A DNA stretch of 64,000 nucleotides from positions 12,664,359-12,728,358 of the forward strand of contig OZ316893.1 in assembly GCA_973895155.1 (NCBI GenBank). Reading direction: 5' to 3'. Below, in pieces: positions 6,862 through 41,245 of this stretch. The notes below the pieces were generated by a model, which searched no databases, had not been told where the DNA came from, and worked only from the letters and a program-made list of their open reading frames with translations. The stretch's first letter is position 1, and the number at the start of each line of letters is the position of its first letter. The position numbers and the translations under genes are program-made. This stretch comes from Marsupella aquatica (taxonomy: Eukaryota > Plantae > Marchantiophyta).

Positions 6862-7530
6862 TTGGATTTGAGGGACGGGAGGATTAATTTCATGAAAATT
6901 TAAGACAAACAAATGAGGCACAATGTATGGTCTAAAATAATATTTTGGCAGTTGGGGGCAGTATGAACTATTAGGGGGCGCGCAGGCGGTGTGTGATAAA
7001 GTGATTATTCCTAGAAGGGGTTTAAGTATGAAATTGAGAAATTTCCAAACTTTTCAAACCTTACATAGTGCATTATGGGGACGGAAAGATCTTTGAGTAA
7101 CGTCAAGATGGCAAAGACATTGTGGCCGACCCAAATATTAGTGACGTCCCTTGAGTAGGGAGGTCCAGCCTATGACCAAAGAATGGCTTTTGCTTAAAGC
7201 AATATTGGATTTGAGGGACAAGAGTATTTCATGCAAATTTAAGACAAACAAACGAGGCAGAGTGTATGGTCTAAAATAATATTTTGGCAGTTTGGGGCAT
7301 TGTGAACTATCAACTATTGCTAGGGGCAGGAGGTGTGTGATATAGTGGTTATTCCTAGAAGGGGTATAAAGTATTAAATTGAGAAATTTTTTAACTTTTC
7401 AAACCTTACATGGTGTTTAATGAGGACGGCAATATCTTTGGGTAAAGTTAAGATGACAAAGACATTGTGGTCGGCCCAAATATTAGTTATGTTCCTTGAG
7501 TAGGGAGGTCCAGCCTATGACCAAAGAACG
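6862..7530. repeat. Diverged tandem duplication, about 340-bp unit, 2 copies
   Basis: ATTGGATTTGAGGGAC...GAGTAGGGAGGTCCAGCCTATGACCAAAGAA starts at 6862 and at 7204. Confidence 0.85.
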
Positions 7531-7847: not shown

Positions 7848-10800
7848 TGTCGCGCCCCTAACCTGGGCCTTAAATCCAGTTTAGTGCCATGGTGCGACCT
7901 CGACCACCAGGAGGGGTGAGGGTTCGGGCAAGGAGGTGTGTAGTGACCTCTATTAGCCCTAAGTCGGGCTAAGTCGATATACTTATTGGTATAACACCTG
8001 CGTAATTCGTACTAGTCATAGGTATATTTGTTTTCCACCGCTGGAATATTCCCTCAGTTAGTGACTCAGACTAACTCCCGGCTTGGGGCCTTTCAAGCCA
8101 TCGACACGACAGGACCTTGCGACACACAATGAGTGGCAATCCCTACCATTACTCCGCACCCGGTACGTCCCTTAAAATGGCGCCTTTGCCCAGACAAAGC
8201 ATACACACAACACCAGTTACTTGCGGAAACATTAGGGGGAAAAGACTACATTTACTCAGCGAAACATCAGTTTACATGGTTGACTCGACTTCAAAGGGGG
8301 TCAGCAGGCCCAATGGCAGTCGATGCCCAGTCTCTACGAGGCCCTGCCTCGCACTTGCCCAGCAAGCTCGACTCTGGCTCTCACTCCTTGGTGCGCCCTG
8401 ACCTTGCTCAGGCCGGGACTCCCCGTGCCTCACCTTTCTTTTGCTGAGATAACTAAGCCCTTTTCCCCCCTTCCATAGCGGAAGGGGAAGCCTAAATACT
8501 ACAACTGCGGAAGGGAACCGGAGGATGCTACCTTTCGGGATACTACCTACTAACTAACTACCTTTTGACTAACGGGCCGTGCCGCACTGACAGATTGACC
8601 ATCGACGACAAGGGTGTCGACCGGAATGGCAGCGGCCAAGCCTACTGACAAATTCTAGTCCGTTGATGGACTCCATCCTACGTTGGCTGATCTTAACTGA
8701 TCCGGCCCTAATTCTTCCTACTGCCGCTAATCGGCGCCTAATGACAGCTATTCTGTCGTTACACCTAACCAAAAGATGCCGCTGTCTTAACCGCCTCGCG
8801 CGGCGCCTGCTTCCACCCTTCGCTAACCACCCCTTATGTGTGTGCTGTGGTTGGACCAGGGCTGGTCCCCTTGTCGGGGCGAGGCCTCGAGCCACCTTGA
8901 TCAGAAGTGGGCCCAGGTTTTCCCCGTTGGAGGACGAGCAGGGTAACGTGGTCCTGCAAAGCCTTGTTGTCCCGTACTGCCTCCTCCACCTCATTTGCAG
9001 CTTCATCGGCCTCGGTCTGGAGCCGCGCTACCTCCAGATTGAGCTGGTTGATGGAGTCGTGATGGATCTGGTCCTGCGCTAGCAATTTATCTCGTTCGAC
9101 GGAGAGACTAGCCACCTGCTGTGCTGCCCGCAAGAATTGTTTGTTGAGGTCGGTCAGGCTGGTAACCCAAGCCGAAGATTCTGAGCGTAATTGAAGCACA
9201 GTGTCATCCAGCTTCTTGAGTTCGGCCTGCGCTCCGCTTAACTCCTGGGTTAGTCCGTCCCTCTATTCGACGGTGCGGACTAACTCTTCGCGGCGGTTAG
9301 TTGCCTCCTCCTTGAGGTGCTCTACCAGCATCTGGAGGCGCCCGATCTCATTCCCCTTCGCCATGAGTTCTTCTTCCAAGCGGCTTACGATCCGTGGTTG
9401 GTGCTCTAACATGAAGAAGGCTGGTTGAAAGTACGTCGAGACCTGTTGTCCGATGTATGTCGCCAGCTCCCTAGACATAGTCTGGCTAAACTTCTGGACC
9501 AGGTCGTAGGCCGTGGTCCCCGGGGCTACTTGGTAGTCCTCCATCCTCTCGGGTACTGGTGGCTCCTCGGGTGGAGCAACGATCTCCTCCGTAGTCAGCG
9601 CTGGGGAGGGGAAGGTATCTTCAGGTGGTGGAGGGATTGGGGGTGGTTGTACTGCGGGTAGTGGAGGCTCAACGGAAGGGGGCGGCAGAATTTCCACGGG
9701 AGGAGGTGGTGGAGTATTAGTCGGGGTTTTCGGCTCGGGGTTTGCCCGAGGGACGGTAGTCCGCGTGCTCGGGGTTGCCTCCTCGGGGGTGGGGGTGACA
9801 TTAGTCGGGGTTGAGGTGGCCATATTCTTTCCTCTGGCCTCCCGCCGTGCCTTGTACCAGGCGAGGATAATGGCGATATGACTTCCCAAGTAAGTCTTCC
9901 CCCCAATAGCCATACCACCCTGAGCCCGCTTCAGCTCCCCCGAGAATCTTCGGTAGAAGAATTGGGCCCAGTTTCGCCGTTTGTACTGTTCCACTTGTAC
10001 GATCGTGCAGAGGGAAATCTCGGATTGCGGCTCAATCATGTGTAGGGTAGTCCGTATGAAGTTAAGTCGCTCCATGCAGGTTAAGTTGGTACACGCTCCC
10101 TGCTTGTATCCATTGTCCGTCTTACCCTCGGGTTTGAAGTGCCGCGGTGTATACTCCTTATCCCAAATTCGGATTTCAATCGGCACCGGCCCGGTTGGTA
10201 GGCAAAAGATTTGCGTTAACCGATGCTCCGTGAGTGATAAGGCCTGCCCCGAAACCTTGGTGGTCGACGCATCAGTGTCAAAATTGGAGATGAACTCACA
10301 AATCTCCTTCGGCGGGGCGGCGCACGGTCTCCATAGCAAGTGAGCGAACTGCTCCAACTGATGCTCCTTAAGATAGTCCGCATGTTCAAGTTTCTTGATC
10401 GCGATCCAGACTACTTCGGGGACGCGGATTACCTGTAACAAGTTGGACTTCGGGTTATCTGGGGGCCGTCGGGTCTGGTTGGTCGGGGGGTTTGCCGGGG
10501 TAGGTGCAGGCGCGGCGTTGGTTCGCGTTGTTGATTCAGGGGCCGTCGTAGTCCTTGGCCGCTTACGAGGACGCTGTTCGAGTTGTGGACTAACTCATTC
10601 GGAACCCGAAGAACAATCTGTGTTGATTACTGGACGGACCTGGGACCGACTCGGCGGTACGCTGGTGGTCATCGGCTGAGGCACTGGTGGTGTCGGGGTA
10701 GCCATATCCCAGTTGAAGGCATTGGAGCTTTCCCCGAGGAACGTAAGATTACGCGTCGCTTCCCGTTGTCTGCTGATGTCTTCTTGGCGCTTTTTGGCTG

Positions 10801-11720
10801 CGATCTGCCGGTCTAGGTACCCTGGAATCTTGTCGAACTCCGCTTGAGTAAGCCGCTGGCTGCCCTTCAGCTTAAAGAACTTTGCTGGGACCTCAAGAAT
10901 CGCTTCTGCTACCGATCTAAGCCCTTCCTCGCTGAGATATAGTTCGGTGATGTAGTCTCACAGCTTGTTGTAGCTGGAATCCCTGGTGATGGCTGTCCTT
11001 TCGCAATTAACCAGTGCTACCTTGGTCACCAGTAAGTCTCGGAGAACTTAGCACCTACCTCGCCAAACAAGGTCCAAAACCCCAAGGCTATGAGGGTCAT
11101 ACTAACCTCGTAGTCCGGTTCATTGAGTCCACGGTCCCACCCGGCTGGTCTTTTTTCCTCGTGGAGGCCTCGATCATCCTGACTAAATCTCACCACATTC
11201 CGCTCTTCTCCCTCGATAGTCTCCTTGTAAAGATTGACTTGATTCGATCAGAAAGGCGAGTGGATGGCAACGTCCGCGAATTCCAAAAAGGTAGATATGA
11301 GCAAATGGCCCGCAGCGCCATCGGCTCCTCTCTTATGGAGGTGCCAGGATGAGCCCAAGCATGAGAAGGCCAGGCCGTTTGGTTATTGATAATGAGCTGA
11401 AGTCGGCGCCTCGGTCCAAGCGTGATTCCTCTAACTGATTTTTACTCCGCTGCCGCCACCGTACCTCGGTCGTGCGTAATAATCCTCTTCCTGAACTCAT
11501 AATTATTCGGTCATCTTAACCTACTCCTAATCTATTCATAATGGCAATAGACGGCTATACGTGCTATTCTACGCTATGGCTACGGTCCTAATGCCCGTAT
11601 AAGACCTAATCTACGATCTGGGTTCGGTTAAGTGACACGTTACCCGTATCACAAAGGTTGTTAGTTTGTCACCTTGATCAGCTCGCCCAACCAAAGGGCC
11701 CAATGTGTAGGCACAACCAC
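7848..11720. mobile_element. GC-rich retroelement-derived fragment with a long accessory ORF (Tat/Ogre-like by architecture)
   Basis: Sharp GC shift and a TGTCGC LTR-like start at 7848. No gag/pol seen and the boundaries are approximate. Confidence 0.4.
8834..10441 (-). pseudogene. Retroelement accessory ORF: N-terminal domain, Pro-rich linker, C-terminal coiled coil, with an internal stop
   Basis: ORFs 9263..10441 and 8834..9199 lie in the same frame, separated by a TAG. A related fragment is at about 24860-25560. Confidence 0.5.
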
Positions 11721-12394
11721 ATCAGCTAACAACTATCATGGCTAGTAGAAGCCACAACTCAAGAGGTCCACATTACTGATTAACAAAAATAAATGAAGAA
11801 TGAATTTGAGTAGTGCAGATCTATCAAACGAGGATCGTCTTGGTAGTAAGCATGTGTGTTTATGAGTGGCAAACTAAATGTGGACTTGGTTGTATTCTAA
11901 CTGTTTCAATACTAACTTGTGCTTGTCTTTGAAACCCACTTTGTTTACCCACTTCGGAATGCATTTATATGCATGCCCATTGCATTATTTACCTTGTGTT
12001 AATATTTCAAAACATATAGCTTAGGTGGCCCCAATTCATGCACATTTTTCCCTGAAAAGTGCCTATCTATGGCAAATTAATAGTAAGATGTGCCCCGGTC
12101 AGTCAGAACTGAATCAACTGCACAACTATTTGGGAGATATATAATATAATAAATGAAGTAGCTGACCGAGTTACAAAATTTACAAATGACTAAACATAGT
12201 CTAACTTCAAGTTCATGTCAATTATATAGGTCAGATTCATTTCTTCTATGGCTATGGAAAATTCAAAGACATTCTGATTAATGAACTAATTTAGTAACCT
12301 AGGTGTCCCTTGTTCATGACGATGTCCGGGTGACCGTGTTTTCTGGCAAGAGCATGTTGGTTCTTTTGAAGTTAACCTTGCATGCTCATAAGTT

Positions 12395-12809
12395 CTACAC
12401 TAAAATCAAAATTATAATTCTAGTAACAAGGGTAGTGGGTATTAAGAAAGGTTCAAGTGAAACTAAAATACTGTTAAACCCTACTTCACCATACTTGCGG
12501 ACCAACACATCACGAAAATTAGTTTTCATACGACATATGATCATAATATCTCCAAGAGAAAATGAAACAGGAATATCATCCAGACTCCTATTCAGATCCA
12601 TGACTTCAATAAAGGACAAAGATGATGCACTCCCACTCCTCTCGGTACGACACCACTGGGTATATTATTGGCTCGTTAGAAACCATAATAGCAGTTGCAA
12701 ACTGAGCTCCAAAATGATAGGTTAGATGTTGCCTCATAGATGGTTTGTCTAAAAGATGGACTCTAATCAAAAACGGATTACGAAGGGGAAGATCAGGGAG
12801 AACAAACAA
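12395..12809 (-). CDS. Tandem pair of small paralogous ORFs (A 12809-12606, B 12601-12395), function unknown
   Basis: Homologous at protein level to the ORF pair in the gypsy LTRs: LPLRNPFLIRVH vs LPLSNPFLIRIH, and PVSFSLGDI is identical. ORF A has no obvious ATG. Confidence 0.6.
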
Positions 12810-12990
12810 TTTAAGAGTTCAATCAAAGGCAAGACAAACAAAGAGTCTAATCCATAGCGAATTAACAGACACATGCAATATACATTAAACCCAAACTAAT
12901 AAAGATAATATAACTAGCAATTATATCTACTTTAAGATTAAAATAAAATGTAATACGTCATATTTTATAAGTTCCCTATAAAAACTTACT

Positions 12991-14838
12991 TCATGTGTGA
13001 CTAGTTCTATTTCTGATAGTCTGGAGTGTTTGGTCCAAGGTATTCAAAGCCCATGACCTTTCTTCTGGCAAATCATTGAAATTTAGTTGTTGATGTACAT
13101 AGGCTGTCAACCCCATAGTTGCACGAGAACTACTTTCACATTCAAGAGAAAGCAGCAAATGCATTCTGAACTTGTCCTCCTTCGATAAGACTCCAATCTG
13201 ATTAGTTTCATATGCAAAATCACGGATATCACGAAGACTCTGCACCAAAAAAAAAGAATTTGGTGAATTGGAAATTAATGAAAAGAATATGCAACCAAAT
13301 AAAATACATTTTTCTTCACTTACCTCATCGTCTAAATCTTTAACACCATGTTCAAAGTTTCCATGATCATCATTATGATTCCAATAATCAGTGCCAATAG
13401 TCTCGATAATATCATCTGCATCTTGAATATCAACTTGACCTTCTTCAGGATATGGTGGAGGTAAAACTATTTTAGATTCTCTCTCTCTTGCTTGAAAAGC
13501 AAGTTGAGGAATGTGTGATGGCCTGTTCACACCTCGTTCTCGCACCGCTCTCACTGTATGGGCATTCCATGTTAGAATGATATCATTTACAGCATTCTGA
13601 ATGAATGGAAGAAGTACAGTAACAATGGAGTATCTATGCAAGGGATTATCCATTTGCAAAAATCCTTCCTCGTATGATAGAGTACGAAATAAGTCCTTAT
13701 AATGACCCAATCCTTGTTTTTTCAAGAATCCCCAAAATGCTTCGATCCTCTGTAAAAATCACAATGATTGTAAAAAATTAGTATGTTCCTTGAAATTCTT
13801 TTTCCTTTTATAAGTTAAAGCCACAAAAACCCTGTGGCAGAGGGGAAACAACCAGGCCATCAAAAAGCCAGCTAAACAACATGACCCCTGGGAGGGCTGG
13901 CATAAAGCATTAACAAGGTACACAGACAACAAATCAGCATCGCGGCCAATGCAACATTGGGCCCCCATAAGTCCCATAGGCAAAAACTTAGTATGTTAAT
14001 AAACATATCAAGCAAATAATTTTGATAACATATAGTTGAGTTTAAGTACTACCTGATTATGAACTGAAGACCCTTTGCAAAAACAATGAGTATTTGGTCT
14101 TGCCCTTTCAAGATTATTTTGGACCATAATATGCTCAGTTGCATAATCAGAACGAATTAATAAAGGATGACCAAATCTTTGAACCGCATTTTTATACCCT
14201 TCATAAATAGTCCGGGCTTTCTTATTTAATGCAACATGCATATACATAACATAATGTGTAGCTCCATCGATAGCTCCATGAATTCTAATTCCATAATTTG
14301 CTAATTTGTCATATGCTGCACAAGAAATTAAACAAAATTAGTACATAATTTCATGATCATGAACAAACTATCTGAATCATATATAGTCAAAAAATGATTG
14401 ATTCAATCTAAATAAAAGGATATAAATACTTGAATTTTACTCACAATCCATATGCCAAATATGCATTGCTTTGGTGACATCGTAAACATGATGTATTAGA
14501 CATCCGCGTGCTCTTGATGCAAGTAATCCTGGAACTAAAACATCCAAGGCATCACGTACAAGCATTCTTGGAACTTTGTATCCAACTCTTTGTAATCCAT
14601 ATATGGGAATAAACTCTAGAATCAATTGCCGAACCTCCTCAAGCGTATATGTTGGATACATTTTCTCTCCATTATTAAATACTTTCAACCATCGCCATAA
14701 AGTAATTCGATCTATTCCAAGTGCTAATGCACATTCCTTCATAGTGTAACCCATGTGAAGTGCTGCCATCACATCTTCACACATTGAATTGATGTTTGTT
14801 GCATCCATATATTTCCCAAATATTCTCCAAAACTCCAA
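12991..14838 (-). CDS. Spliced DDE transposase / integrase-core protein (IS3EU-like rve family) with N-terminal HTH
   Basis: Joining exons at GT-AG introns 14444-14316 and 14052-13750 gives WHMDSYDKLANYGIRIHGAIDGATHY...FGHPLLIRSDYATEH...GSSVHNQRIEAFW...WNAH, the D-D-E motifs of this family. HTH-like ECALALGIDRITLWRWL upstream. A third intron is likely at about 13240-13323. Confidence 0.8.
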
Positions 14839-15183
14839 TGAACTAATACTTTATTTTGCCAGTGTATAATTCCACCTTTTTTAGAACAATTAGAGAACTC
14901 TGTCAGAAAAACAAAGGTCACAAGACAAAAAACCAAGGCTAGTTAGAAAATGTACACTAAGTTGCCATTGCACATACAATAAAATAGGAATATTTTTAGC
15001 AAAAGATACCCTGGATTTACAAAGGATTTGAAAACTATGGAGGGCTCTTTGGTATATTCAATGCCACAATTTAAGCTCTTGAGAGCATCTATTACAAAAA
15101 TAAGCAAAGATACAAATGGGCAAACAAAATCAGTATATAATATTAAAAAAAATTCTGCTCATTATCATGACTATGAATCATGT

Positions 15184-16535
15184 TTATGCATTTTCATTTG
15201 AAAATGTGTAGGCACCACCTAGCTTCTCATTAATTGCAATCCCAACTACGTATACCGGTTCTATAGGGAAACATCTGTATGAGGTGGCGTGCATATCTTT
15301 TCCACGAAGAAAGAAAATATCCCCATCTAATATTGGAATCTTTATTCCATACTCAATAACAACTAGATGTCCACCTCGTTCCTCCATTGAGGGATTTGAT
15401 GCCATGAACATAGTGTATTTACTACAATCATGATCATTATGAACTATATTACAATAGTTCTTTGTAAGAAATAGAGGATATGCTGGTACAGCATGTTTCA
15501 CAACGTTGGGCTTGGAAAAGTGTTGAAGTAATTCTTTGCTTAGATCCATGAAAGGATCTTTGCAATCCAAAAATTCCCTCACTACCGGCCAAAAATAATC
15601 ACAAAATAGTAGGAAAATAATTTCAAATAAGATTCGATGGGAGCATTGCTCATGAATTAACTCCAATTGCAATGCGCTAATTGGAGTTGTATCAGCAATC
15701 TTTAACTTACCCCTGTAGTAACTCACAAAATGTGCTTTTTTTTCTTCTCTCCAATTCACAAGTGGCCCCACAGCTCGCATTGTTTCAATCAATGTTGATC
15801 TCTAATCAGCTCTACGAACAGTCCATTTATGATTGTAGGCATCAATTATTGAATGCCTTAGAAATGGTCGATCGCCCTCTGGAACAACTCCTTTCATTCG
15901 TCCCCCTATTATTTCATTGGTAGACCTATCTTTCCAAATTTCAATAGATGACAAGGGATCCATAACATAAAAGTTACTTGGTATCACCTTCCATACAATA
16001 TGTCGTTATGTTTTCGGTGGGCTAAATCCTCTCTCAATCAAGAAAGCATTTTTATGTTTCACAAGAAACTTAGGGCTTCTCTTCGCAAATGTCTTTACTG
16101 GGATTTTATATTCTTCAAATTTTTCAAAATGATCTGCCTTCCAATTTATATATAAAATTGGATCTTTACGAAACTTTCGGACCCTGGTGGCAATCTCATT
16201 CCCAAGCGAAGATAGATTGTACCGGAAAGTGATCAAGTGGACTATTGTTTTCCACTGATTGGCAATAAAATACTCAGACCAACAACCGGTTTCCCCAAGA
16301 AGTGAAAACCAGAATAAAATTTTGATAACTCTCCCTTCATTTTCCCATCGAAAAAGATGTGCACACCATATTCAAAGAGTAACCAATCACCGAGCAACCA
16401 TTTCAGTAAAAACTGAATATGCAATTTTCCCAACTAAGATGTAAGAGTGATGAGCTCACAGAAATAAATAGCAGCCTTAGGAAGAGGTTGGCTTTTGGTG
16501 ATGTCTGTTGGATTTTGATGATCATTAAATTGAAT
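15184..16535 (-). pseudogene. TET/JBP-like 2OG-Fe(II) dioxygenase, long exon with in-frame stops
   Basis: C-terminal DSBH signature VHND...GGHLVVIEYGIKIPILDGDIFFLRGKDMHAT (HxD...H). A single frame runs from an acceptor near 16535 to 15184 with 5 stops and no frameshift. A basic upstream exon is likely at about 16845-16939. Confidence 0.6.
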
Positions 16536-18096
16536 CTGCACAATAAGATTATTGATCAACATAAAGTGATAAGGAACTTTTACTAATTTAGTATAGTTTA
16601 CTAGTTAATCAATATTTTGCTTGACATCTTGGACCATAGTGATTTCAAATCGAATTCGAAGCATATCAACGCCAGGCACTGAGGATTCCAACAGAAATAA
16701 TCTGAAAGTTTCACCCCCCCCGGAATATCAATTCCTCTTGATTTTACTCACAAAACTATGGTCTCCAAAATATAGCAATATACTGATGATAATGAATATC
16801 TTATAATAGATTGTATACTATTGGCAACAAGGTAAGATTCTTACCATTTCATCAGATTTGGGAGAAGTTTGCCTTTTCTTTCCTCTTCTTTTATTTACTT
16901 TTGCATCATTGTTACTCAATTTTAAGCCTTTCATCGAATCTGCAATGAATGACAATCTATCCTGAATATCAAGTTTTTCATATAATTATTCAAACAAAAA
17001 ATAATACTAACCATTCGCATATCAATCACAGGTACTTATTTGACACATATAATTACTTTATATAGCCTAATCTTTAGGTATGTCTATTTGTTTGTATTAA
17101 CGTATTCCAAACTCCATCAACAAATACAAAATTGAAGTATGCAAATTGCATGCATGCAACAATAGATGAGGCAAAAAGAGAAATGGTCACCTCGTCACCA
17201 CAAATTAGCCAGTTTTCCAAATCCAAAGTTGTCTTCAAAATTGATATCTCTGCACATTCCAAAAAATATATCAAGCTTAAGGTCCCATTGGCCATAATAC
17301 AAAATCTAGTGGATCCAAGTTACTATGAGTCCTCCAAAATATTCTCAATAAAATTTAGAATTTTTCACTCATTTGTCCTTTCCTAATTTGATGGCCTATG
17401 GTTTTAGTCAAAGAGTCTATTGGATAAACTTTAGAGCCAAGAAATATGATCACGAACAGGGGTCAGCAAAGTGGGATCAATGGGATGGAGATGACAATAG
17501 AAGAACCATCTGTCAACTTCATGGGCACTATGATCATATATCTTTCGATCGCAAGCATATCCTTCTGCCTGACATTCCTTCAAACAGTAAAAATGCCACA
17601 TTGTGGGGCATCGAATGCAATGGACAATATCTGTCCAATTCAGGTCATCATGTTCACCACATGCCTTGCATGTATGTAACGGGCAGATAGGGGTGTGTGA
17701 TGGCAGACACACACCGCAAAAAAACCTTACACAAAATCTATCTGAACATTTTTGAACATATTGTGGAGAGTCAAGAGAACCCTCCAAATTCCCCAACTTT
17801 CCACATTGGGCACACTTTGCATGTTTATGTATGCAGTCTTTGCACTTCCACTTCCCATGTTGGCCAGAAGGTGGGGGAAGGCCGACTCCTGGACAATTAT
17901 TCTCTGCTGCATGCAGAGATTGTGCATTGAGATGAAAGTGCCTCAAGCATGGTCCATCACAAATGACTAACTCTCCACCATCGTCACAAATGGCACAACA
18001 ATGGGCTGTTTTTTGGTAGATTTGTTCGCGTGAAAACTTCAAAACATGTGGTCCAAACACAGCTGAATGTCTCACCTCGCCCTTATCTTTTCTACA

Positions 18097-19957
18097 ACAC
18101 AATTTTGGACCGAACGAGAACTATTTCCTCTAAACGAGAAGTGTATTTTCATTTTCTGCCGAATCTCGCGAAATCGGCAGTTTTTTTCATCAAAAACACA
18201 TTTTTGGGGAAATAATGTAATTCGTATCAGAGTTCGGATTGAAACAGCAAATTTAATAATGATCAAAACCAATGAAATTCATACTAACAAACATTCATAT
18301 TATCAAGGAACAATTAGATCCGAAAAAATTTCTCCTCAACCTCATATTCACGCTCTCCGAAGATATATGAAAAGTCTTATCTATAAATCCATATCCACGT
18401 TTCGAGCCAAGTGCGATAACTGTATCGGACTCCGGATTTGAGCCATGAAAGCTCTGACCCAATCTCAGTTTTCTCAGTTTTTGGATATTTACCAAAAATA
18501 TTTTACATCACAGTCGATAAGAATTACTGCACGGTTTGTCAAACTTACCTTGCAGTTACCTCCGCAATTGACCAGTTACCTCCGCAAGTGACCATAGTCA
18601 ACATGCCATTCTTTCAACATCAATGCGCAGTCCAATAAAATTATCGCGAAAACTACGGGCGACAAAAATACTAGTCGACAATACTAAGATCCTTCAGTTC
18701 ATTGGTTAAATTTCAAAATTCCTATCCATATGAAGAAAACTCTTCGCAATACCAACATCAGATAAATTTATCGCTTCAATTTCAAAATTGCAACTTCCAT
18801 ATGAAGGAACCACTTTTGCAATACCAACATCAGATAAATTTATCGCTTCAATTTCAAAATTGCAACTTCCATATGAAGGAACCACTTTTGCAATACTAAC
18901 ATCAGATAAATTTATCGCTTCAATTTCAAATTGCAACTTCCATATGAAGGAACCACTTTTGCAATACCAACATCAGATAAATTTATCGCTTCAATTTCAA
19001 AACTATATAATTTTGCCACGATGCACGTGTGAGAATGAAATTGGAAATCCAAGAAATATACCATTTTCTGTTATTTTGTCGTTTAGGGTGACAGCCAATC
19101 AAAAGTGGACACGTGGGCCAACCCCTCAACAGACACTATAAAAGGGCCACCGCCGATAAGTTTTTTGCACAGGAGGATGCGATAAGTTTATCGCACTCCG
19201 CATTCGAATTGAAAATATGACTTCCTAAGACACATAAGCCCTGAATTCAATCTTTCACAAAAATAACAACTCCGATAAATTTATCAGATTCTCAATTACT
19301 CCTCTTTCCATGAAAGGAATGAAGACTCCGATAAATTTATCGGAATGAAGGCAACACCTCTCTAAACACTGGATCAAATGATTGCAACAGAGGAATGCAG
19401 AATGCGATAAATTTATCGTAGTCCGCTCGAATCTGGACATTTTACACTAAATGACTAGTTAGTCTTACATGGAGAACTTGAACAGGAATGGTTGTTCCGA
19501 TAAATTTATCGGGTTTTCGGTAGAAAGAGTCGAATCGCTTGGGAGGAATGTAAGACTCGATGGGAGTTTGGTATTCGCTCTCAGTCAGGAGATATTTGCT
19601 CTGGCGAAAGCAAACGTTTTATGGGCAGCCCGCTCCTCTTTATATAGGAGACGCTCTAAACCATGGTTAATTTCCTCTTAACCATGGTTAAGTTTCCCCT
19701 TTACCTGGGTTAGTGCATGGTCGTTCCTGGATTACGCGGTTCGGACCAAGTTACTTGCAGTTCGGACTTTTTCACTAACGGAATGTAAAACCCGATGCAC
19801 GTATCGCTCCCTGCATTCCCGCGGCGATGCAATGGAGGAAAGTGGCATTTCGGAGAGTTTTTGCCAATTTTATCGGTCATTGCATTGCCTTAGAAAAAAA
19901 ACAGGATCGGGCTAAATGAGAACTCCGACACACTTCTCGGTCGGTCCAAAATCGTGT
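18097..19957. mobile_element. Non-autonomous TIR DNA transposon, 1.86 kb, superfamily unclear
   Basis: TIR ACAC(A/G)ATTTTGGACCGA(A/C)CGAGAA at both ends. TCTACA is duplicated at 18091-18096 and 19958-19963. Confidence 0.85.
18720..19002. repeat. About 72-bp tandem repeat, about 4 copies, each with the palindrome GATAAATTTATC
   Basis: CAATACCAACATCAGATAAATTTATCGCTTCAATTTCAAA at about 18747, 18819, 18891 and 18962. Confidence 0.9.
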
Positions 19958-20139
19958 TCTACATGGTTGTTTAGGACGAGCCATGCTTACACATTCATAA
20001 ACAAAATTAATTGTAAGAAATCATAAAAAATTAGGATAAACTCAGAACTAACAAATCATCAAAAATACACAATAATACTACTATTCAATGAGCTATTCAA
20101 GATTCATGTACAAATTAGTTGCATACTTCAATCTATATA

Positions 20140-20937
20140 ACAAGTCCAAGTACATGTTGTTCTCTTAGCCATGCAGGTCTCACACAAGATGCTGGTATGA
20201 TAAGAGTCGTGGCTGCCAAATGTCCCTTATTTGAACTACTCATAAACAAAATTAATATTCACTAAGGAAAGCAGGGTTTGAGAGATGGAACGCAAAATTT
20301 CTAGAGCCACATTCCCTTACCAGAATGGGACCAAACTTTGCTTGCACATACCCCAGGTAGTAGACAACGTGTTGGTGAAGTAAGAGCACCAACAAAGCTT
20401 TGGTTGAGAAATGAAAAATCGGAGCCTTTGTGGGGTACTCTTGCCTCCTAAGCAACCTCTGACTTCTCTCCCTTGCCACTATTCAAACCAGCTCTGACTT
20501 GCTAGATCTGCAACCAAGTCCAAGTGCATGTTTTCCTCTTAGCCAGGTCCCTAACAAGATGGTGGTTCATAAGAGTCGTAGCTGTCAAATGTCCCTACTT
20601 TGAAGTACTCAAAAACCTATCGTTCGTTAAGGGAAGGAACATTTAAGAGATGGAAGCAGAGGGCGTGGAATTTTTGGAGCCACATTCCCTGGGCTGAATG
20701 GCACCAAACTTGGCCAGCACGTACCTCAAGAAGTAGACAATGTCCTGGCAAAGTAACAGCATGAACGGAGATTTCAGTGAGAAAATGAAAAATTGGATGC
20801 TCCGAGGCGGTCCTCCTGCCTCCCAAGCCACCTTCGAATCCTCTCCCTTGCCACTACTTCGATCAGCTCGTACTTGCTAGACCTGCAAACAAGTCCAACT
20901 ACATTGTGTTCTATCAGCCACGTCCCTAACAAGATGA
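20140..20937 (-). repeat. About 375-bp satellite, left part (about 2 diverged copies)
   Basis: Reverse complement of the units at 36020-37404; truncated at the inversion breakpoint. Confidence 0.8.
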
Positions 20938-22946
20938 TCTACAGAATATGGATACCACATTTTGCTCACATTGCAGAACCTCTCTATGATCTTCTAAGGA
21001 AGAATGTGAGGTTTGTATGGAGTGCAGGCCATACAAAGGCTATGCAACAATTGAAAGAAGCTTTGACTAGCTCACCGGTGTTACGACCTCTGAAGTACAA
21101 TGGTATTGACCCAATAATTGTGACCATTGACTCAAGTCCTCATGCATCTGGATGGGCAGTTGGGCAAGATGAGGAAGGACAAAGGTTTGCCGCACGGTTT
21201 GGGGCAAAAATATTTACAGAAAGACAGAGGCATTATCCTCAAGTAAAACGAGAGTTGTGGGGTGCGAAGGTAGCACTTCGCCAAGAAAGAGACTATTTGA
21301 TAGGAGCAAATGTAATACTGGAGATAAATTGCCTACCCTTGTTGGGAATGATAGCCAATTGTGATACTCCAGATATTGCAATGCTTCGATGGATAGCATT
21401 CATCAGAATGTTTAACCCTGAGTTAAAGCACATTGCTGGGAGAGATAATCCAGTAGCGGATATGCTTTCCCGAGCTCGCTATAGGGACAAGGAGGACCAA
21501 GGAATGTGCCTTCATAGTACATATGGAGAAGATGAAGGGGAATTGTGGTTTGAAGAGGAAGCTTACTCTGGGGAATTGTTGCAGATAGGACGTTACCTTG
21601 CCACGTTGCAGAAAGATTCAACATGGAGTAAGCAAGATTTCAACAAAATTCGGAAGAAGTCTTACCAATTCATGGTAAGAGATGGATCCCTTTGGAAGCA
21701 TCCAAAGAAGAAGGGGCACATACTTCTAAGGGTCATTGGTAGAGATGAAGAGAAACACAAAATTTTACATGACTTACATGATTCCGACGTGGCAGGACAT
21801 AAGGGGCGAGAAGCTACTTATGAAAGGATTCGAAGACTATATTGGTGGCCAGGAATGTATGTAGATGTAAGCAAGTATGTGGAAACTTGCAAAGTGTGTC
21901 AACTCTACTCAAAGGTGAAGCATTGCGATGGACTAAAACCCACGTACTCTCTTTCCCTACACTACTAATGGGCTGTAGATGTGGTACACATGCCGAGAGG
22001 AGTAAGAGGAGCCAAGTACCTTGTCTTGGCTATTGAGGACCTCTCCTCTTACATTGAAGGAAGAGCCTTGACAACAAATAAGACCGAGGCAATATGCAGA
22101 TTTGTATTGTAGGACATCATTGCAAGGTATGGATGCTTTGATCGCATGAGGGCAGACAGAGGGGAGCTCAATGCAAAGGAAGCGGTTGCATTTTTCAGGA
22201 AGTTTAGGGTGAATCTCAAATTGACAACTGCTTACAATCCTGAAGGTAATGGCAAGAGTGAGAGGGGACACCAACCAATTGTGAATGCCTTGATTAAGGC
22301 ATGCAAGGGAAGAATCTCACTTTGGCCAAATTTCCTTCCCCTAGCACTCATGGCACACAGAACAACTTGCACATCGGTAACAGGATATGCACCTTCAGAG
22401 TTGATCAATGGTCAACTTCCACCCATGCCAATAGAAGAAGACATTAATAGTTGGAGGGCAATAGAGTGGGAGGATGGTGTATCTCAAGAGGATTTGATTC
22501 TTCGTCGCATAGAGCAGTTTGATCACACTCCTACAAAGATCCAAGGCGCCATTAAACAATTGAAGCAAAAGAGAATGGCTAACAAATCTCGCTTTGACAA
22601 GACCCATCGGTTGAGACCCAAGATAATCCAAGAAGAGGATTGGGTCTTAGTTTCTGAAGGCGGTCTCGGACAAAATCACTCCTCGATCAACAAATTTGCA
22701 CAACGTTGGAGAGGCCCATTTGTAGTAGTTACTATTCACCCAAATTCCACTTACACTCTCAGTGAATTGGATGGAGCAATTCATCGTGTGCCTTATGCAG
22801 GAAAAAGAGTGAAAATATTCAAAAGGCGAACACGTTTTTTAGAGGAAGATCCCATCGATTCAGACCAAGAAGAGGAAGAAGAGGAAGAAGAAGAAGAAGA
22901 AGATGAAGAACCTGAAAAGCAAGAGGAAGAAATATTCATTGAGTAA
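20938..22946 (+). pseudogene. Ty3/gypsy pol, 3' half (end of RT, RNase H, integrase)
   Basis: YRIWIPHFA; RNase H IDSS...KRELWG...NPVADMLSR; integrase zinc finger LHD..GHKG..CKVC; core RADRGEL..YNPEGNGKSER; RWRGPF. Internal stops at about 21966 and 22110. Confidence 0.92.
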
Positions 22947-22954
22947 AGTAAGAG

Positions 22955-23070
22955 ATTAGTAGGGGTGACGATTAAGTGTGGTACAGACTACAAGATGCAC
23001 AAAAATTAGTAGGGATGACTATTAAAGTGTGGTGCAGGCCGGAGGCTGCACAGGTTTAGTAGGGGTGATA
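22955..23070 (+). promoter_or_regulatory. Polypurine tract, three similar copies
   Basis: TTAGTAGGG(G/A)TGA at about 22956, 23006 and 23056; the last copy abuts the LTR-start TG. Confidence 0.7.
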
Positions 23071-23154
23071 TGTCGTGAGGATTCTTTGTTTAGTAAGTTC
23101 CTCCTAAGTATAGCTTAGTAGTATAGGATAGTAGTTTAAATTCTCGCGTATGCA

Positions 23155-23600
23155 GTCTATAGTGTGCATGCTACAGTGCACAACCTACAGTGTGCATGCT
23201 ATAGTACACGGTCTACAGTAGGCATGCTATATTGATTCGATCTACAGTGTGCATGCTACAGTGCAAGACCTACAGTGTGCATGCTATAGTGTACGATATA
23301 CAGTGTGCATGCTACAATGTACGATCTACAGTGTGCATGTTACAGTGTACGATCTACAGTATGCATGCTACAATGTACAATCTACAGTGTGCATGCTACA
23401 GTGTACGGTCTACAGTGTGCATGTTACAGTGTACGATCTACAGTATGCATGCTACAGTGTACGATCTACAGTGTGCATGCTACAGTGTACGATCTACAGT
23501 GTACGGTCTATAGTGTGCATATTACAGTGTACGATCTACAGTATACATGCTACAATGTACGATCTACAGTGTGTAAGCTACAGTGTACTGTCTACAGTTG
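23155..23600 (+). repeat. 28-bp (2x14) minisatellite inside the LTR
   Basis: TACAGTGTGCATGC / TACAGTGTACGATC units; mirrored at about 42385-42775. Confidence 0.95.
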
Positions 23601-24253
23601 CTCCACTCACATAACTACAGTACTAGCACACTTACTTGCCTTAGATGTGTGACACATGGCTTCCATCCGTGTGCCATGCTTGATCCGTGTGCTTGAGGTG
23701 TGAGCACTATAAATAAAGAGGAGAGGGGCTCTCTCCCCTCACTCCCCATTTTTCATCAACTAAGTTGTGAAGTCTTAAAAATCTATTGGACTTGATGATC
23801 TCTTCTATGGATATAACCCTTATGAAGTAGACCCACTCATGCACTCTTGCTTAGAGCTTCGGCTCGGCCAAGGATATTTTGTATGAGTCGGACCTTCAGA
23901 AAGTGTTGTCATTTGATAGGAGATGGTTATTAAGTTCTAAAGAGTTGGAAAGTGCTCAACAATGCCTTGACATCATATGCTCCCTTTTGGGTGAAATCCT
24001 TATGAAGTAGACCCACTCATGCACTCTTGCTTAGAGCTTCGGCTCGGCCAGAGATATTTTGTATGAGTTGGACCTTCAGATAGTATTTCATTCAAAAGAA
24101 GATCAACCTATTAAGACAAACATCTGCATGTATATACTTAGAGTTAACTCAATGCATGGTATTTGTTTGAAATGAATGATCTTTTCATTGAATGATTCTA
24201 TATCTTGTCATTAGAATGAAAATTAGTTGGATGGAATATTTGATAGTACGATA

Positions 24254-24671
24254 ATGCCCAGACCAGTACCTATTCTTCCTCTCTCTAATCCTTTCCTTAT
24301 TAGAATTCATGTACTCCAAAAAGAGATAATGCGTCAGCATATGACTTTTCACTTTGGAGAAGCATTTGCAACTGCGGTGTTAAATTCAATAGAGCCAATT
24401 GTATACCCTTATGTAGTTTACGGGTAGGATTGGGTTTGCACAATTTTTATCTTGTATTGAGATGGATCTCAACAAACCTCCATCCGATGAGCCTCCCGTT
24501 TCTTTCTCGTTGGGAGATATTTGTTTTGTAACTTGACCCAAGGTAGCTGCCAAGGAGGCAATAGTCCGTAGGTATGGAGAAAAGGGTTATGATGTTGTGC
24601 TTTCATCCACGGAACCGTTCCTTGTGGTGTCTGCTACCCAGTCTAGAATAGTAATCATGATCTTAACTTAA
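24254..24671 (+). pseudogene. Small ORF pair A and B inside the 3' LTR
   Basis: MPRPVPILPLSNPFLIRIH...ILY* followed by MDLNKPPSDEPPVSFSLGDI...IMILT*, each with one premature stop. Confidence 0.6.
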
Positions 24672-24858
24672 GTTCTCTCTTGACACTAGCAGCCATAGGC
24701 CCGGTGCTTCCTCAAGAACCACATTTTCCCCCCAGACACCGCTGTCTCCTCAAACAATCTACGTCATGCTTGAGTAGCTGGACTGGATCCAAGATAGACT
24801 TGTTCTCTCTTTTTGTCATGCCCATCTCCTCCGCGGCATCCTGGCATGCCTCTTCCAA

Positions 24859-25560
24859 CTATTGGGTGTTGCTCGTCAGTTGTACCACCAGTTGGTCTTG
24901 TTTTGTGGCTTCTTGTAGAAGCTGTGCCACCTCCACCTTCAGGACGTCAACCTCTGATGTATCTCTTTGGACTGGAGTGTCGGCTTTCTTTGCGTCCTTC
25001 TTCCAGATGATAGCTTGTCCCTTCAAGCTATCAATTTGTGTCTGTAGCCGCGCGATCTTTGCATCCTTTCCAGCTCCAGCTTGTGTGGCTAGGGCTGTCT
25101 TGGCTTTAGCTTTGGTGATCTGGGCCAAGGCGGTCGCAAGTTAGGGCTATAGCAGTTGTAGCTTGGCCTCTTGGGCTGAGGCTTCATTTAACAATTGGGT
25201 TGCCCTGATACTGCTCTATCCTCCTTGCGGCTTTAGACTGGGCATGCCCTGCCTTTACTAGCTGCAACCAATTCTTGGTTGAAGAAGTAAGCCACCTTGC
25301 AGGCCATAAACACCCCCATATCTTGACCAGCTTCCACGGAGAAGTTGTCGAGCAACCCATTCAAATATGTCCCCGGACCAAAGTTTCTTGGGTTCACCGG
25401 GTCATGCCTACTAGGGTTTGGGCAAGGGTCTCCCTCTATATGGGTGGGGGTGGGGGCAGATAGATCCAGTTCTGGGGTGACAAGAACAGGGATAGATGGA
25501 TCTGCTGAGGAGGAGGGCTCTATAGGAGCTAGCGTGGGGGATGTTGTCTTAGGGTCAAAG
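24859..25560 (-). pseudogene. Degraded retroelement accessory coiled-coil ORF, related to 8834-10441
   Basis: FSVEAGQDMGVFMACKVAYFFNQ resembles FSQTMSRELATYIGQQVSTYFQP and is followed by a coiled coil. Confidence 0.4.
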
Positions 25561-26399
25561 GCTGGACGTCGTTAAAAGGGATGTCACTTGTATTTGGGTT
25601 GGCCACCTTGTAACTGTCATCTTTATGTCTAAGGTTGTCATGGAAGAGACGCCATTGATGTGACCCTCATAAAAGGACGTCCAGGCTGTCACTTGTTTGC
25701 CCCCTTTTTCTTCTAAGCCATCTTTGAAACTCCATTCAATCTTGGGGATAGCTTGATACCACTTAAGAGGGCCTTATAAATTCTAAATTTAAATTATAGT
25801 ATTTCATACTTTAACTCACTTTAGGAATAATCACCAAATTTTAGTATTCATTGTGGTGATCATGAGACTATAGTTAAGAACGTTTGTCTAACACAAAAAT
25901 TGAGAGCGTGCAACTCACCATCGCAATGAGAATAGTAGCAAAATGGCTACCTTAAATACTCTCTTTTGGTCACATATATAGTGGGCACAATTGCCAGAGG
26001 AGCAGCAGGAGCAGGAGTAGGAGCGCCGACGGCCATCACGCACCCGTCACCAACAGGATCCCCGGAAGGATAAGGGCAAGAAGCCAGCCAAGAAGCCAAC
26101 CAAGAGGAGCCGCAAGAGCCCATTCTAGTTATTTTGTAGAGATACATGCATGAGAGTGACTTGTCATGCCGGAGCTTAGGGTAGGAGAGGCAGCATAGGT
26201 TTAGAAGGGCGGACCTAGCATCAGATATTTCCCCCCTCTTGTCCATGTATAGGGTTCTTTGAAGCCCTATCATTTTGTTCATGCTTTTCCATTTTATAAA
26301 ACAACAATTTTGCCTTCCACATTGGGTTCCAAGGAAAACCCCTTGCAAATAATGTATTGAATCCTGTGTGATCATAATTTTGTGAACCCTTTAAGAACT

Positions 26400-35700: not shown

Positions 35701-36019
35701 ATAATTTAAAACAAAAACACAGACACAAAATCTCAATAGGACAAATTAAGTAACTTCAGTAGGCTCCCAAACAAGGTAGCCATACCCATTGAGATTTCTT
35801 ATATGTGTTTTTATTTCTAGGCTTTCAAGTGTACGTATCAGGAGTGCAATTCATTTCAACCCAACCTGAGGAGGGAGATGAGCCGCCAACAAAATCAGCG
35901 GCCAACATTTGTCACACACTAAAGTTATTGAACCTGATGATACACCCTCAAACTTGGTCGAACACTCCTTTGAATCCTTGCAAGAGAGAAGTCGAAATAG
36001 ACTTGGCAAGCAGCAGAAG

Positions 36020-37404
36020 TCGAAGCTGGTAAGGAGGCAGGAGGACCACCTCGGAGCATCCGATTTTTCATTTCTCACTGAAATCTCCGTTCATGCTGTA
36101 ACTTTACCAGGACATTGTCTACTACTTGAGGTACGTGCTGGCCGAGTTTGGTCCCATTCCGCTTAGGGAATGTGGCTCCAAAAATTCCACGCTCCCTGCT
36201 TCCATCTCTTCAACATTGCTTCCCTTATTGAACGATTGATTTCTGAGTACTTCAAAGCAGTGATGTTCAACAGCTACGACTCCTGTGATATTGTCATCTT
36301 GTTAGGGACATGGCTGAGAGAACACAATGTAGCTAGACTCGTTTGTAGGTCTAGCAAGTACGAGCTAATCAAAGTAGTGGCAAAGGAGAGGATTCGAAGG
36401 TGGCTTGGGAGGCAGGAGGACCACCTGGGAGCATCCGATTTTTCATTTCTCACTGAAATCTCCGTTCATGCTGTTATTTTGCCAGGACATTGTCTACTAC
36501 TTGAGGTACGTGCTGGCCGAGTTTGGTCCCATTCCGCCCAGGGAATGTGGCTCCAGAAATTCCACGCTCCCGACTTCCATCTCTTCAACATTGCTTCCCT
36601 TATTGAACGATTGATTTATGAGTACTTCAAAGTAGTAATGTTCAACAGCTACGACTCCTGTGATACTGTCATCTTGTTAGGGACATGGCTGAGAGAACAC
36701 AATGTAGCTAGACTCGTTTGCAGGTCTAGCAAGTACGAGATGATCGAAGTAGTGGCAAAGGAGAGGATTCGAAGGTGGCCTGGGAGGCAGGAGGACCGCC
36801 TCTGAGCATCCAATTTTTCATTTCTCACTAAAATCTCCATTCATGCTGTAACTTTACCAGGACATTGTCTACTACTTGAGGTACATGCTGGCCGAGTTTG
36901 GTCCCATTCCGCCTAGGGAATGTGGCTCCAGAAATTCCACACTCCCTGCTTCCATCTCTTAAATGTTACTTCCCTTACAGAACGATTGATTTCTGAGTAC
37001 TTCAAAGCAGTGACGTTCAACAGTTGCGACTCTTGTGACACCACCATCTTGTTAGGGAAGTAGCTAAGAGAACACAATGTAGTTGGACTTGTTTGCAGAG
37101 TACAAGCTGATTGAGATAGTGGCAAAGGAGAGGAGTCGAAGGTAGCTTGGGAGGCAGGAGGACCTCCTCGGAGCATCTGATTTTTCATTTCTCACTGAAA
37201 TCTCCGTTCATGCTGTAACTTTGGCAGGACATTGTCTACTACTTGAGGTACGTGCTGGCCGAGTTTGGTCCCATGCCGCCTAGGATTATGGCTCCAGAAA
37301 TTCCACGCTCCCTGTCTATCTCTTCAACATTGCTTCCCTTACTGAACAATTGATTTCTAAGTACTTCAAAGTAGTGATGTTCAATAGCTACGACTCCTGT
37401 GATA
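36020..37404 (+). repeat. About 375-bp satellite, right part (about 3.7 copies)
   Basis: GGAGGCAGGAGGACC at about 36033, 36408, 36783 and 37149. Confidence 0.92.
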
Positions 37405-38766
37405 GATGCAGGCCCCAAGAAATCTCCTTACCTCTGAGGTAGTTCTGCAGTTCTCCATATCCTTGATGGCATCCACTTTTGCTTCACATGGTCTTCTTCC
37501 ATAAGGGCCACAAACTTGCCCTACTACCATGATCTCTTGTAACCCGAAAGCTGACTTATCCCCAGATAGAGTTACTCCTACTTCCTTGAGTCTTTGTAGA
37601 ATAGCTCCCACATCTTGTAAGTGCTCCCACACAAACTGTCTTAGACCATCTCCTCTAAGTGTTTGATCCCTCTCCTTGTACAAACACCCTTTTATGGGGA
37701 TGTCATCAAGAAAAGGTCTAGTCTTCTCTGGAACAAATGGTTGCAAAATCCTATTCATGGCATTTTGCATATGGGCCACTGAGTTAGTTTCACCTTGAGG
37801 AAGGGTGCACATTCTTAACAACCCTAGTGGCGTTCTCATAGTAGTAATGTCCCTGCTATCTTGGGCAAGCTGAAACTGATCATACCCTGAGTATAAGTCG
37901 CTAATGGAGTAGATTGCTCTCCCAGCAAACTCCTCAGCAAACTCATCCACCACAGGTCCTGTGCCCACATTCCTTATGGTGACCTTGTTTGGTGGCTGCA
38001 TGTCTTGAATGAACCTTAGCTTCCCATTCTTCTTTCTCACCGTGAACCACTGATTTGAGTACGGAGCGTTTGATCTCTCAAGGATTTTGGTATCTAACTT
38101 CTCCTTGAGTAACTCCACCAACTTAGGCATCAGTGCTCGTGGTACAGGAATTGGCTTAAGGTCCCAAGGAACGTGTGGAACAGTGAAGATTACCATTGGT
38201 GTGATCTCCCTTGGATCAACACATCCAATCTCTCCAATGGAAAAGGAAAAGGCCTTTTCATGTTTGATGATCATCTCATTGAAGGCTCTTCTCTCTTCCT
38301 CTAGTAAACCCTTATCACCAATCTTTAATTTGAGCAACGTCTCCTCAGTGAATTTATGCCCAATCTTAGTACGATCTCTAAGACTTGGCTCCTCCTTTGC
38401 TTGCTTCAATATTTCCTTAGCCTCAGATGGCAAGGGAACTGCTGCAGGTCGCACCTTCTTGTCCACTGTTTTGTACTTTGTGTGTACTTCTGCAAAGCGC
38501 TCAATGTAACCATACACATCCCTTTCCACCTCCACTTCTCCATTTTCTTCCTCAATGTCTCCAATAATCTCTCGAAGAGAGGGTGGTAATCCCCTTTCCT
38601 CTAGTACTCCTTCTATTCTCTCTTCAACCTTCAACACTCCTAATGTGAACAAATCTTTTTCTTTCTTTTCCAACATCTTCTGAGCTCGCCTCTTCACACC
38701 ACCTTTATGAAAATAGCTCACTTCACTAGTCCTACTCACACCAACAAAAGAGGAATGAACCTCCAT
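37405..38766 (-). pseudogene. Ty3/gypsy reverse transcriptase, truncated at the inversion breakpoint
   Basis: KKNGKLRFIQD, DLYSGYDQF, LPQG, FLDDI, ending VRRFLGACI. Confidence 0.93.
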
Positions 38767-38819
38767 AGACGAGACTAAAGGCTTGGCGTCCTGCCTGCTC
38801 GCTTCTCTTAGCGGGATGC

Positions 38820-39704: not shown

Positions 39705-39944
39705 TGAGCTTCCATGGGAGATTTCTTCTTGACTCTTGCTTGTGGACGCTTTAGGCTCCTCAAATCAAACTCCTTTCTCTTTGGCTTGACGTGTGAAGCG
39801 AGGTCCTGCTTCGGGTCTCTGTTGTTTTTCTCTCCTTTGGGTTTCTTCCATAGAAGTGCCTTCATACCTCCTCTTATCTTCCACAGCGGCATTCCATGCT
39901 GCTCCTACTTCCGCAGTGATAGAGTTGATCAACACAGGCACATC

Positions 39945-41030: not shown

Positions 41031-41224
41031 ACGACTTGCTTCCTCCTTCTTCTGGTTCTCAGGTGCCTCTCTTCATGCTTTGGCCTCCATCAAACTCATA
41101 AACATCTCAGTCATCTCTTTCATAGTTCCTCCTACCATTGTGAACAACTTCTCCTTTGCTTCTATTTTCTATCAAGCTTCTTCTCTCGTCAATATCCTTT
41201 TATCTTTGACACTAGCCTCAAGTT

Positions 41225-41242: not shown

Positions 41243-41245
41243 ACA

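Follow-up and report, generated by a model that had tools for sequence, protein, structure and literature searches.

Three genes on one strand

We analyzed a 64,000-nucleotide (nt) stretch of contig OZ316893.1 from Marsupella aquatica (assembly GCA_973895155.1; hereafter the window), in which a first-pass annotation made from the letters alone had picked out a decayed gene for a TET/JBP-like dioxygenase. On the minus strand, this gene lies between a gene for a triple-PHD protein, upstream, and one for a DDE transposase, downstream. Neither neighbor appeared in the first-pass annotation, and their presence changes the nature of the unit. We read it as a decayed three-gene cassette (PHD reader, TET/JBP-like oxygenase, and DDE transposase), likely one DNA transposon of what the sequence suggests to be a non-seed land plant. 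The predicted target of the oxygenase is 5-methylcytosine (5mC), modification of which would let the element escape silencing; as a whole, this reading seems to us about evenly balanced between right and wrong. The oxygenase has a TET/JBP-type fold with its iron ligands in place, and it has lost the arginine that binds 2-oxoglutarate (2OG). The features of the locus are as follows.

11653..20138, minus strand: inferred extent of the element, lying between two retrotransposon-like insertions
12991..14808, minus strand: helix-turn-helix (HTH) and integrase-like DDE transposase gene, predicted exons 14808-14445, 14315-14053, and 13749-12991
15184..16535, minus strand: main exon of the TET/JBP-like gene, a pseudogene in the window copy, encoding a helical N-terminal part and then a double-stranded beta-helix oxygenase domain
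16844-16536, minus strand: phase-0 GT-AG intron of the TET/JBP-like gene, predicted from splice consensus
16845..16939, minus strand: short basic upstream exon of the same gene with Met at 16934, predicted from splice consensus
17431..19984, minus strand: stand-alone NSD/EDM2-type triple-PHD gene of ~228 amino acids (aa), first 9 codons at 19984-19958 and the rest at 18090-17431
18097..19957: high-copy non-autonomous insertion of ~1.86 kb that splits the PHD gene, with ~22-bp inverted ends and a 6-8 bp target duplication

In tblastn, the main exon of the TET/JBP-like gene matches P0023, an intact 479-aa relative, at 55% over 384 aa and, in a second frame, at 40% over 80 aa. Six-frame translation gives a last open stretch of 205 aa (15801-15187, minus strand), which is 65% identical to P0023 over the oxygenase domain. 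Among 1.84 billion representatives, 21 relatives of this frame were found at E≤1e-3, and these, together with the intact P0023, indicate that the frame is not a product of chance. Relative to P0023, the window copy bears in-frame stops at 16436-16434, 16008-16006, and 15804-15802, as well as a single frameshift near 16289. The earlier view that the gene is decayed thus stands, while its single frame with five stops gives way to three stops, one frameshift, and a predicted intron. The upstream exon had no match to P0023 beyond chance (1,970 of 2,000 shuffles scored as high). Residues 1-220 of P0023 are helical, modeled with low confidence, without a Pfam match, and loosely common to full-length members of the family.

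The transposase gene was recognized through two Pfam rva_4 matches above cut-off (E 1.1e-16 and 2.9e-8), accompanied by weak HTH matches. Its spliced frame is open over 461 aa, carries D121/D178/E212, lacks HHCC, and has motifs that we take to be IS3EU/GingerRoot-like. Adjacency to such a gene is in line with the earlier suggestion that the oxygenase is transposon encoded. At 14595-14597, in the N-terminal part of the transposase, contigs from three sequencing runs carry 36 extra bases, and the window copy seemingly has an in-frame deletion. IS3EU and GingerRoot form one lineage (PMC10045372). Among plants, GingerRoot has been reported from bryophytes and lycophytes only, and as absent from charophytes (PMC6839031).

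Pfam matches of the PHD gene fall below cut-off (PHDvar_NSD, E 3.8e-5; PHD-1st_NSD, E 2.6e-4). The nearest ESM Atlas cluster of its product scores 0.92, with Streptophyta as the commonest taxon, a label that rests on few records. The gene is collinear with a paralog at 54548-53841 (69% identity); both paralogs end at the same stop, and on this ground we rejected a PHD-TET fusion. Dominant contigs of four runs (X1-X4) lack the insertion that splits the gene, running from 18089 directly to 19957 and thereby skipping 1,867 nt. The insertion itself contains 72-bp internal tandem repeats and a repeated palindromic motif, and its CpG content, 1.15 of expected, is unlike that of its surroundings.

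Fold and active site of the oxygenase

We place the gene product as TET/JBP-like in the broad sense; it is neither a canonical 2OG-dependent TET nor demonstrably of the CMD1 type. Its homology and fold, as first proposed, are supported by three approaches. In the ESM Atlas, it scores 0.97 to Tet_JBP clusters, and 25 of 30 matches are Tet_JBP. For P0023, AlphaFold2 was run on 28 sequences, and the model (mean predicted local distance difference test [pLDDT] 58, core blocks mostly 74-92) was compared with the PDB by Foldseek; CcTet, CMD1, and NgTET1 fill all matches listed to rank 21 (E 6e-8, for CcTet, to 9e-6), and the first non-TET enzyme follows at E 7e-5. For profile comparison, we aligned nine phage gp2-type TET/JBP proteins as a control, and their profile recovers TET2 with its Arg in register; hhalign of the family against this profile gave a probability of 91.7% (E 7.7e-7). 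By sequence profile (Atlas, hhalign, and Pfam), AlkB and prolyl hydroxylases are therefore more distant from the family than TET/JBP is. The best named viral match is a JBP1/TET protein, and a weak phage match (E 2) turned out to be a gp2-type Tet_JBP protein.

Across alignment A1 (21 family members, of which 17 reach the C terminus and 4 are fragments that end earlier), the oxygenase-type Pfam matches are weak and all of TET type: PF20515 (2OG-FeII_Oxy_6) in 5 of 21 and PF12851 (Tet_JBP) in 2 of 21. The window frame had no significant match in direct Pfam, PDB-sequence, or PHROG searches. A tree of 16 family cores and 9 phage cores, with 5 short fragments left out, splits the family from the phage TETs at 99/99 across long branches; containing neither fungal nor algal TETs, it is silent on origin. 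A profile search for further relatives returned two proteins, both already known, and two metagenome scans (39 and 104 pattern matches) confirmed no family locus, the alignments being too diverse for a pattern scan. All relatives looked up (10 proteins in Logan, ENA, or NCBI) are unannotated by name. Separately, the actinophage gp2 proteins L001, L007, and L010 belong to Tet_JBP and keep the canonical Arg, although they are labeled "queuine tRNA-ribosyltransferase" or "oxidoreductase."

The residues that define the active site map to four segments.

15427..15441, minus strand: H-x-D iron ligands and a second Asp (15429-15427), each in 21/21 of A1
15274..15291, minus strand: distal His (15291-15289), 17/17, and an Arg five residues on (15276-15274)
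15229..15261, minus strand: last core strand, without Arg at the 2OG C5-carboxylate site and without the base-stacking aromatic
15811..15813, minus strand: N-terminal Arg, by spacing the positional equivalent of TET2 R1261 and CMD1 R244

The motifs noted in the first pass recur here: HND at exactly 15441-15433, the GGHL...GDIFF strand pattern on the minus strand, the distal His, and a last strand, PVYVVGIA (15258-15235), devoid of R-x-S. The conservation of HxD and the distal His holds in intact copies, and the iron triad is kept across four subclades at 21-38% identity. By spacing rather than superposition, as for all active-site mappings here, the second Asp would stand where CMD1, NgTET1, and TET2 have their cytosine-N4-binding Asp/Asn (PMC7854593). 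The N-terminal Arg, severed from the core in the window copy by the stop at 15804-15802, is, by eye, kept in 8 of 9 relative clusters with good coverage of its column.

The missing 2OG arginine, first noted in the window copy, is a property of the whole family. At the C5-carboxylate site, Arg occurs in 0/17 members in either of two registers, the site being V/A/T in register 1 and V/M/I in the hhalign register; a single member has R/K anywhere in positions 181-191 (1/17), at an unrelated site. The equivalent Arg (R1896/R289) is invariant in all nine phage TET controls. Also absent is the base-stacking aromatic of the Y1902/F295 site, which is A/V/T in register 1 and Asn in 15/17 in register 2. 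At the site of CMD1 Trp358, the 21 members have Tyr (12), Phe (1), Met (3, among them the window copy), or another residue (5), and the third core strand carries Ser in 19/21 and Tyr in 12/21.

These features bear on the parallel to CMD1 drawn in the first pass. Two Arg bind 2OG in TET2 and NgTET1. In CMD1, which uses vitamin C, the aligned Arg410 points away and the space is taken up by Trp358 (PMC7854593). Like CMD1, the family leaves the 2OG C5 carboxylate without a basic partner. CMD1 itself keeps the aligned Arg, so the parallel is to the CMD1 pocket and not to a missing residue. Several of its vitamin-C contacts are unmatched. In the family, the CMD1 Ser335 site is Phe/Tyr (20/20), the Val342 site is mostly Asn/Ser, and the Phe416 site has no aromatic; the Thr337 and Thr399 sites match, but these are common to other TETs.

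The Arg five residues beyond the distal His could be a stand-in for the lost 2OG Arg. This position (His+5) is Arg in 12/17 members and Lys in 1/17, whereas it is hydrophobic in the phage TETs (n = 9). A TET with a rebuilt pocket would still use 2OG, its C5 carboxylate held by the His+5 Arg together with the conserved Tyr/Ser/Thr, and would yield 5-hydroxymethylcytosine (5hmC), 5-formylcytosine (5fC), or 5-carboxylcytosine (5caC). The basic residue at His+5 in 13/17 and the Ser and Tyr of the third core strand speak for such a pocket, as does the precedent that 2OG-binding residues are subfamily specific (PMC7854593). By eye, moreover, the motif around HxDxD resembles that of rust PU-type TETs, most of which have the Arg, and PF20515 matches weakly in the 5 members mentioned above. 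Against it, His+5 is not invariant, being Glu in one intact subclade (P0022, P0019) and Cys or Met in two members. We regard a rebuilt pocket as rather unlikely; it would leave the biological role unchanged and offer less new chemistry.

That the whole family has lost the stacking aromatic along with the co-substrate Arg also fits a catalytically silent protein that binds metal and 5mC and shields the element from methylation readers. Invariant iron ligands are unusual in dead enzymes, and here all three persist over the four divergent subclades, so that we consider a silent binder highly improbable.

Other copies and surroundings of the element

Part of the stretch was found in six sequencing runs from four studies. 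Dominant contigs from runs X1 and X3, which belong to two studies, are ~98% alike, and in them neither the frameshift nor the stop at 16008 or at 16436 is present; the stop at 15804-15802 sits 7-9 nt from a contig end, where the contigs give no reading. Minor contigs, ~88-90% alike, also cover the TET gene, and the two sets together imply that at least two variants exist. In each run, dominant contigs of similar depth, which we do not take as copy number, tile 11838 to 18089 in pieces and cover all three genes. One contig of 571 nt runs from the 3' end of the TET gene to 55 nt short of the transposase start.

Compared with these other copies, the window differs at 35 positions, with C>T changes in the window at 5/83 CHG, 3/66 CG, and 9/671 CHH sites. 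Window-specific C>T is enriched at CHG over CHH sites (p = 0.015 in the complete list of 35, where the signal rests on 5 changes; p = 0.003 in a larger, hand-picked list of 51). The window is CpG poor, at 0.49 of expected. CHG methylation is tied to streptophytes (PMC12344493). Judged from the sequence alone, the CHG bias and the Atlas neighbors of the PHD protein suggest a streptophyte host, which we take to be a land plant outside the seed plants. A streptophyte alga, a fungus, or another eukaryote with large repeat-rich DNA seems unlikely to us: the TET-bearing IS3EU of rusts, the few Atlas records, and the small number of CHG changes leave some room for it, whereas four CACTA-type Pfam domains, the lack of an alpha-kinase match among the frames scanned, and the reported absence of GingerRoot from charophytes speak against it.

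Both flanks of the element run into retrotransposon-like DNA, a Gypsy-type repeat starting at 20139. Two Gypsy-type copies, at 20139-24738 (plus strand) and 36000-42857 (minus strand), lie in opposite orientation and have in common a 1.4-kb repeat (96%), 14/28-bp tandem arrays, and 375-bp tandem repeats. On the other side, ~8000-11652 is GC rich and weakly CpG depleted, with an LTR-like (long terminal repeat-like) end and long minus-strand frames, one of 443 aa without a Pfam match and another predicted as coiled-coil. Within the 3' region of the element, ~12300-12800 is a second high-depth stretch and probably another inserted repeat. A 73-78-bp inverted match between 7100-7177 and 25553-25628 was considered as a terminal inverted repeat (TIR) and rejected, as one side is a tandem repeat.

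The PHD paralog precedes a CACTA/EnSpm-type element on the minus strand at 46110-54548 (Transposase_21, DUF4218, Transpos_assoc, and a weak Transposase_24), near a tandem-BRCT frame at 53255-52392 and a weak F-box-like stretch. Similar PHD reader cargo thus stands beside two transposon superfamilies in the window.

Proposed mechanism and known systems

We infer that the three genes likely move together as one element. Several results weigh against the reading of a mobile cassette with a 5mC-modifying oxygenase. At the level of the element, a search around the cassette for TIRs and a target-site duplication (TSD), with TA..TA ends and a 6-bp TSD, found none; no contig in the runs examined spans the whole cassette; and C>T changes in the window copy do not significantly outnumber those in the opposite direction (17 versus 10, p = 0.25, complete list). 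At the level of the protein, no family member reaches the Pfam TET cut-off (best 20.6 bits versus 34.9), the P0023 model is of modest quality, and modeling of the 205-aa fragment from the window gave a poor structure, with no fold match at E≤1e-3. VIA-align places TETs, AlkB, and prolyl hydroxylases within 0.2 Z of one another (NgTET1 12.9, prolyl hydroxylase 12.8, CMD1 12.8, AlkB 12.7, TET2 12.7). As to the pocket, the base-stacking aromatic is kept in all solved TETs and lost here, the window's own subclade has mostly Met/Phe/Val rather than Tyr at the Trp358 site, and the CMD1 vitamin-C contacts Ser335 and Val342 are unmatched.

The failure to find TIRs, a TSD, or a spanning contig, along with the PHD paralog that adjoins a CACTA transposase, would suit a locus in which the three genes are not one element, through nested insertion, membership in another element family, or host genes beside a transposase. 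Their common strand and close spacing, the similar contig depth over all three in each run, and the 571-nt contig that joins the TET 3' end to near the transposase start argue the other way. Fungal IS3EU elements, too, carry a TET beside the transposase, in the same orientation in three families (PMC12730594). Taking both sides, we think it distinctly unlikely that the genes are unconnected.

The tie in VIA-align and the absence of the stacking aromatic in either register could instead point to a TET-derived oxygenase that still serves the transposon but acts on thymine, RNA, a base already modified, or a methylated histone peptide; Kojima allows further activities for divergent transposon-borne TETs (PMC12730594). 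Set against this are the Asp at the cytosine-N4 site, invariant in 21/21, and the structural comparisons, in which DNA-acting TETs head the Foldseek list and TETs have the longest VIA-align alignments (196-232 residues; NgTET1, root-mean-square deviation 4.0 over 196). Whether AlkB or prolyl hydroxylases match best, the concern raised in the first pass, is answered differently by the two methods: Foldseek puts them behind the TETs, VIA-align level with them. With that qualification, none of the outcomes named in the first pass as counting against its idea came about, neither a best match to AlkB, prolyl hydroxylases, or another type of fold nor a lack of HxD/H conservation in intact copies. 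We judge a different substrate to be quite improbable.

In the cassette reading that we prefer, the PHD protein would bind heterochromatic marks such as H3K9me2, by analogy with EDM2, a plant protein with NSD-like PHD fingers that binds H3K9me2 chromatin (PMC3776765, PMC7529245). The oxygenase would flip 5mC out and grip it through two residues, the invariant second Asp and the N-terminal Arg, while its HxD...H iron would activate O2. Since the 2OG C5 carboxylate would lack a basic partner and the Trp358 site is often filled by a bulky residue (Tyr in 12/21), binding of the co-substrate would presumably depart from that in TET2; we put ascorbate or some other non-2OG co-substrate slightly ahead of re-anchored 2OG. 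The modified base could then block CG/CHG maintenance methylation and permit expression of the transposase.

A bolder version, which we consider unlikely, is that non-seed land plants carry an ancient, diversified family of transposon-borne TETs that use a non-2OG co-substrate to write a 5mC derivative, 5-glyceryl-methylcytosine (5gmC) or a novel base, on heterochromatin found by the PHD protein. Were it true, this would be a mobile reader-plus-eraser module and the first enzymatic source of oxidized or glycerylated 5mC in land plants. Short of that, the locus offers a concrete candidate land-plant TET family, missed by Pfam, with intact expressible members. Loss of the 2OG Arg across the family alongside intact iron ligands points to novel chemistry, as CMD1 did. 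With a histone-reader gene on board, a plant transposon could direct demethylation to its own copies, by a route different from that of VANC, which is not known to be an oxygenase, and the compact reader-oxygenase pair could serve as an epigenome-editing tool.

A 2019 review describes TET equivalents in plants as unsettled and disputed (PMC6949463). We found no land-plant transposon-borne TET in the literature covered, outside which fall Iyer 2013 and 2014, which may mention plant TET genes; the available part of PMC4738411 makes no statement on such TETs, and PMC13519894 and PMC10288648 contain only a reference line. Three points are new here: a host that is likely a land plant, a PHD partner, and the replacement of the Arg by hydrophobic residues throughout the family.

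Among the nearest known systems are fungal elements. TET genes occur in 11 fungal DNA transposon lineages, IS3EU among them, always with an alpha-kinase (Kojima 2025, PMC12730594); TET-bearing IS3EU are known from rusts, with the alpha-kinase opposite the transposase and the TET between (PMC12730594), and the available part of that paper mentions neither PHD, fern, nor moss. The window shares with them a TET/JBP gene beside an IS3EU-type transposase and, by eye, the HxDxD-type spacing, and the motif ahead of the first His looks similar; an anti-silencing role is a proposal in both. The third gene differs, an alpha-kinase there and a triple-PHD reader here: among 42 of the 95 open reading frames of the window that were scanned, none matched an alpha-kinase, and the same-strand PHD gene holds that place. 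The window family further departs from the fungal elements in being hydrophobic at the Arg site in every member, in lying under the Pfam cut-off, and in its likely plant host. Arg loss is nonetheless not unique to it, since 9 of 26 fungal TETs read by eye (26 of the ~163 rows of Kojima Table S1) lack Arg at this site (17 R, 1 K, 5 H, 3 other). Rust TETs that keep the Arg can have Met at the Trp358 site, as does the window copy.

CMD1 of Chlamydomonas reinhardtii resembles the family in its TET fold, HxD...H, N-terminal Arg, and cytosine-binding Asp, and in offering the 2OG C5 carboxylate no basic residue to pair with; the family is often aromatic at the Trp358 site. Like the window gene in our reading, CMD1 is transposon borne in the green lineage, in a different transposon, DNA-1_cRei, and other Chlamydomonas TETs are transposon borne as well (bioRxiv 2022.06.16.496473). 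Structural identity between the two is ~14%, and CMD1 differs in keeping Arg410 (pointing away) and Phe416 and in its Ser335 and Val342, which the family does not match. TET2, NgTET1, CcTet, and the phage gp2-type proteins share with the family the fold, the iron triad, the second Asp/Asn, and the core strand profile, and TET2 and NgTET1 additionally share, as mapped by spacing, the N-terminal Arg (R1261/R224). Unlike these canonical TETs, the family lacks equivalents of Arg1896/Arg289 and Tyr1902/Phe295 and has an extra helical N-terminal region of ~200 residues.

GingerRoot elements of lycophytes and mosses, in the 4-13 kb class, likewise combine an integrase-like DDE transposase with cargo capture; their reported cargo consists of host gene fragments (PMC6839031), whereas that of the window consists of whole genes with intact relatives. 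The words "dioxygenase" and "PHD" are absent from the main text of that paper. Arabidopsis EDM2 is similar by domain type, having an NSD-type PHD cluster, but it adds a methyltransferase-like ELP domain where both window PHD paralogs stop right after the fingers. VANC of VANDAL elements (cited in PMC12730594), finally, follows the logic that we propose for the window cassette, a counter-silencing function encoded by the transposon itself.

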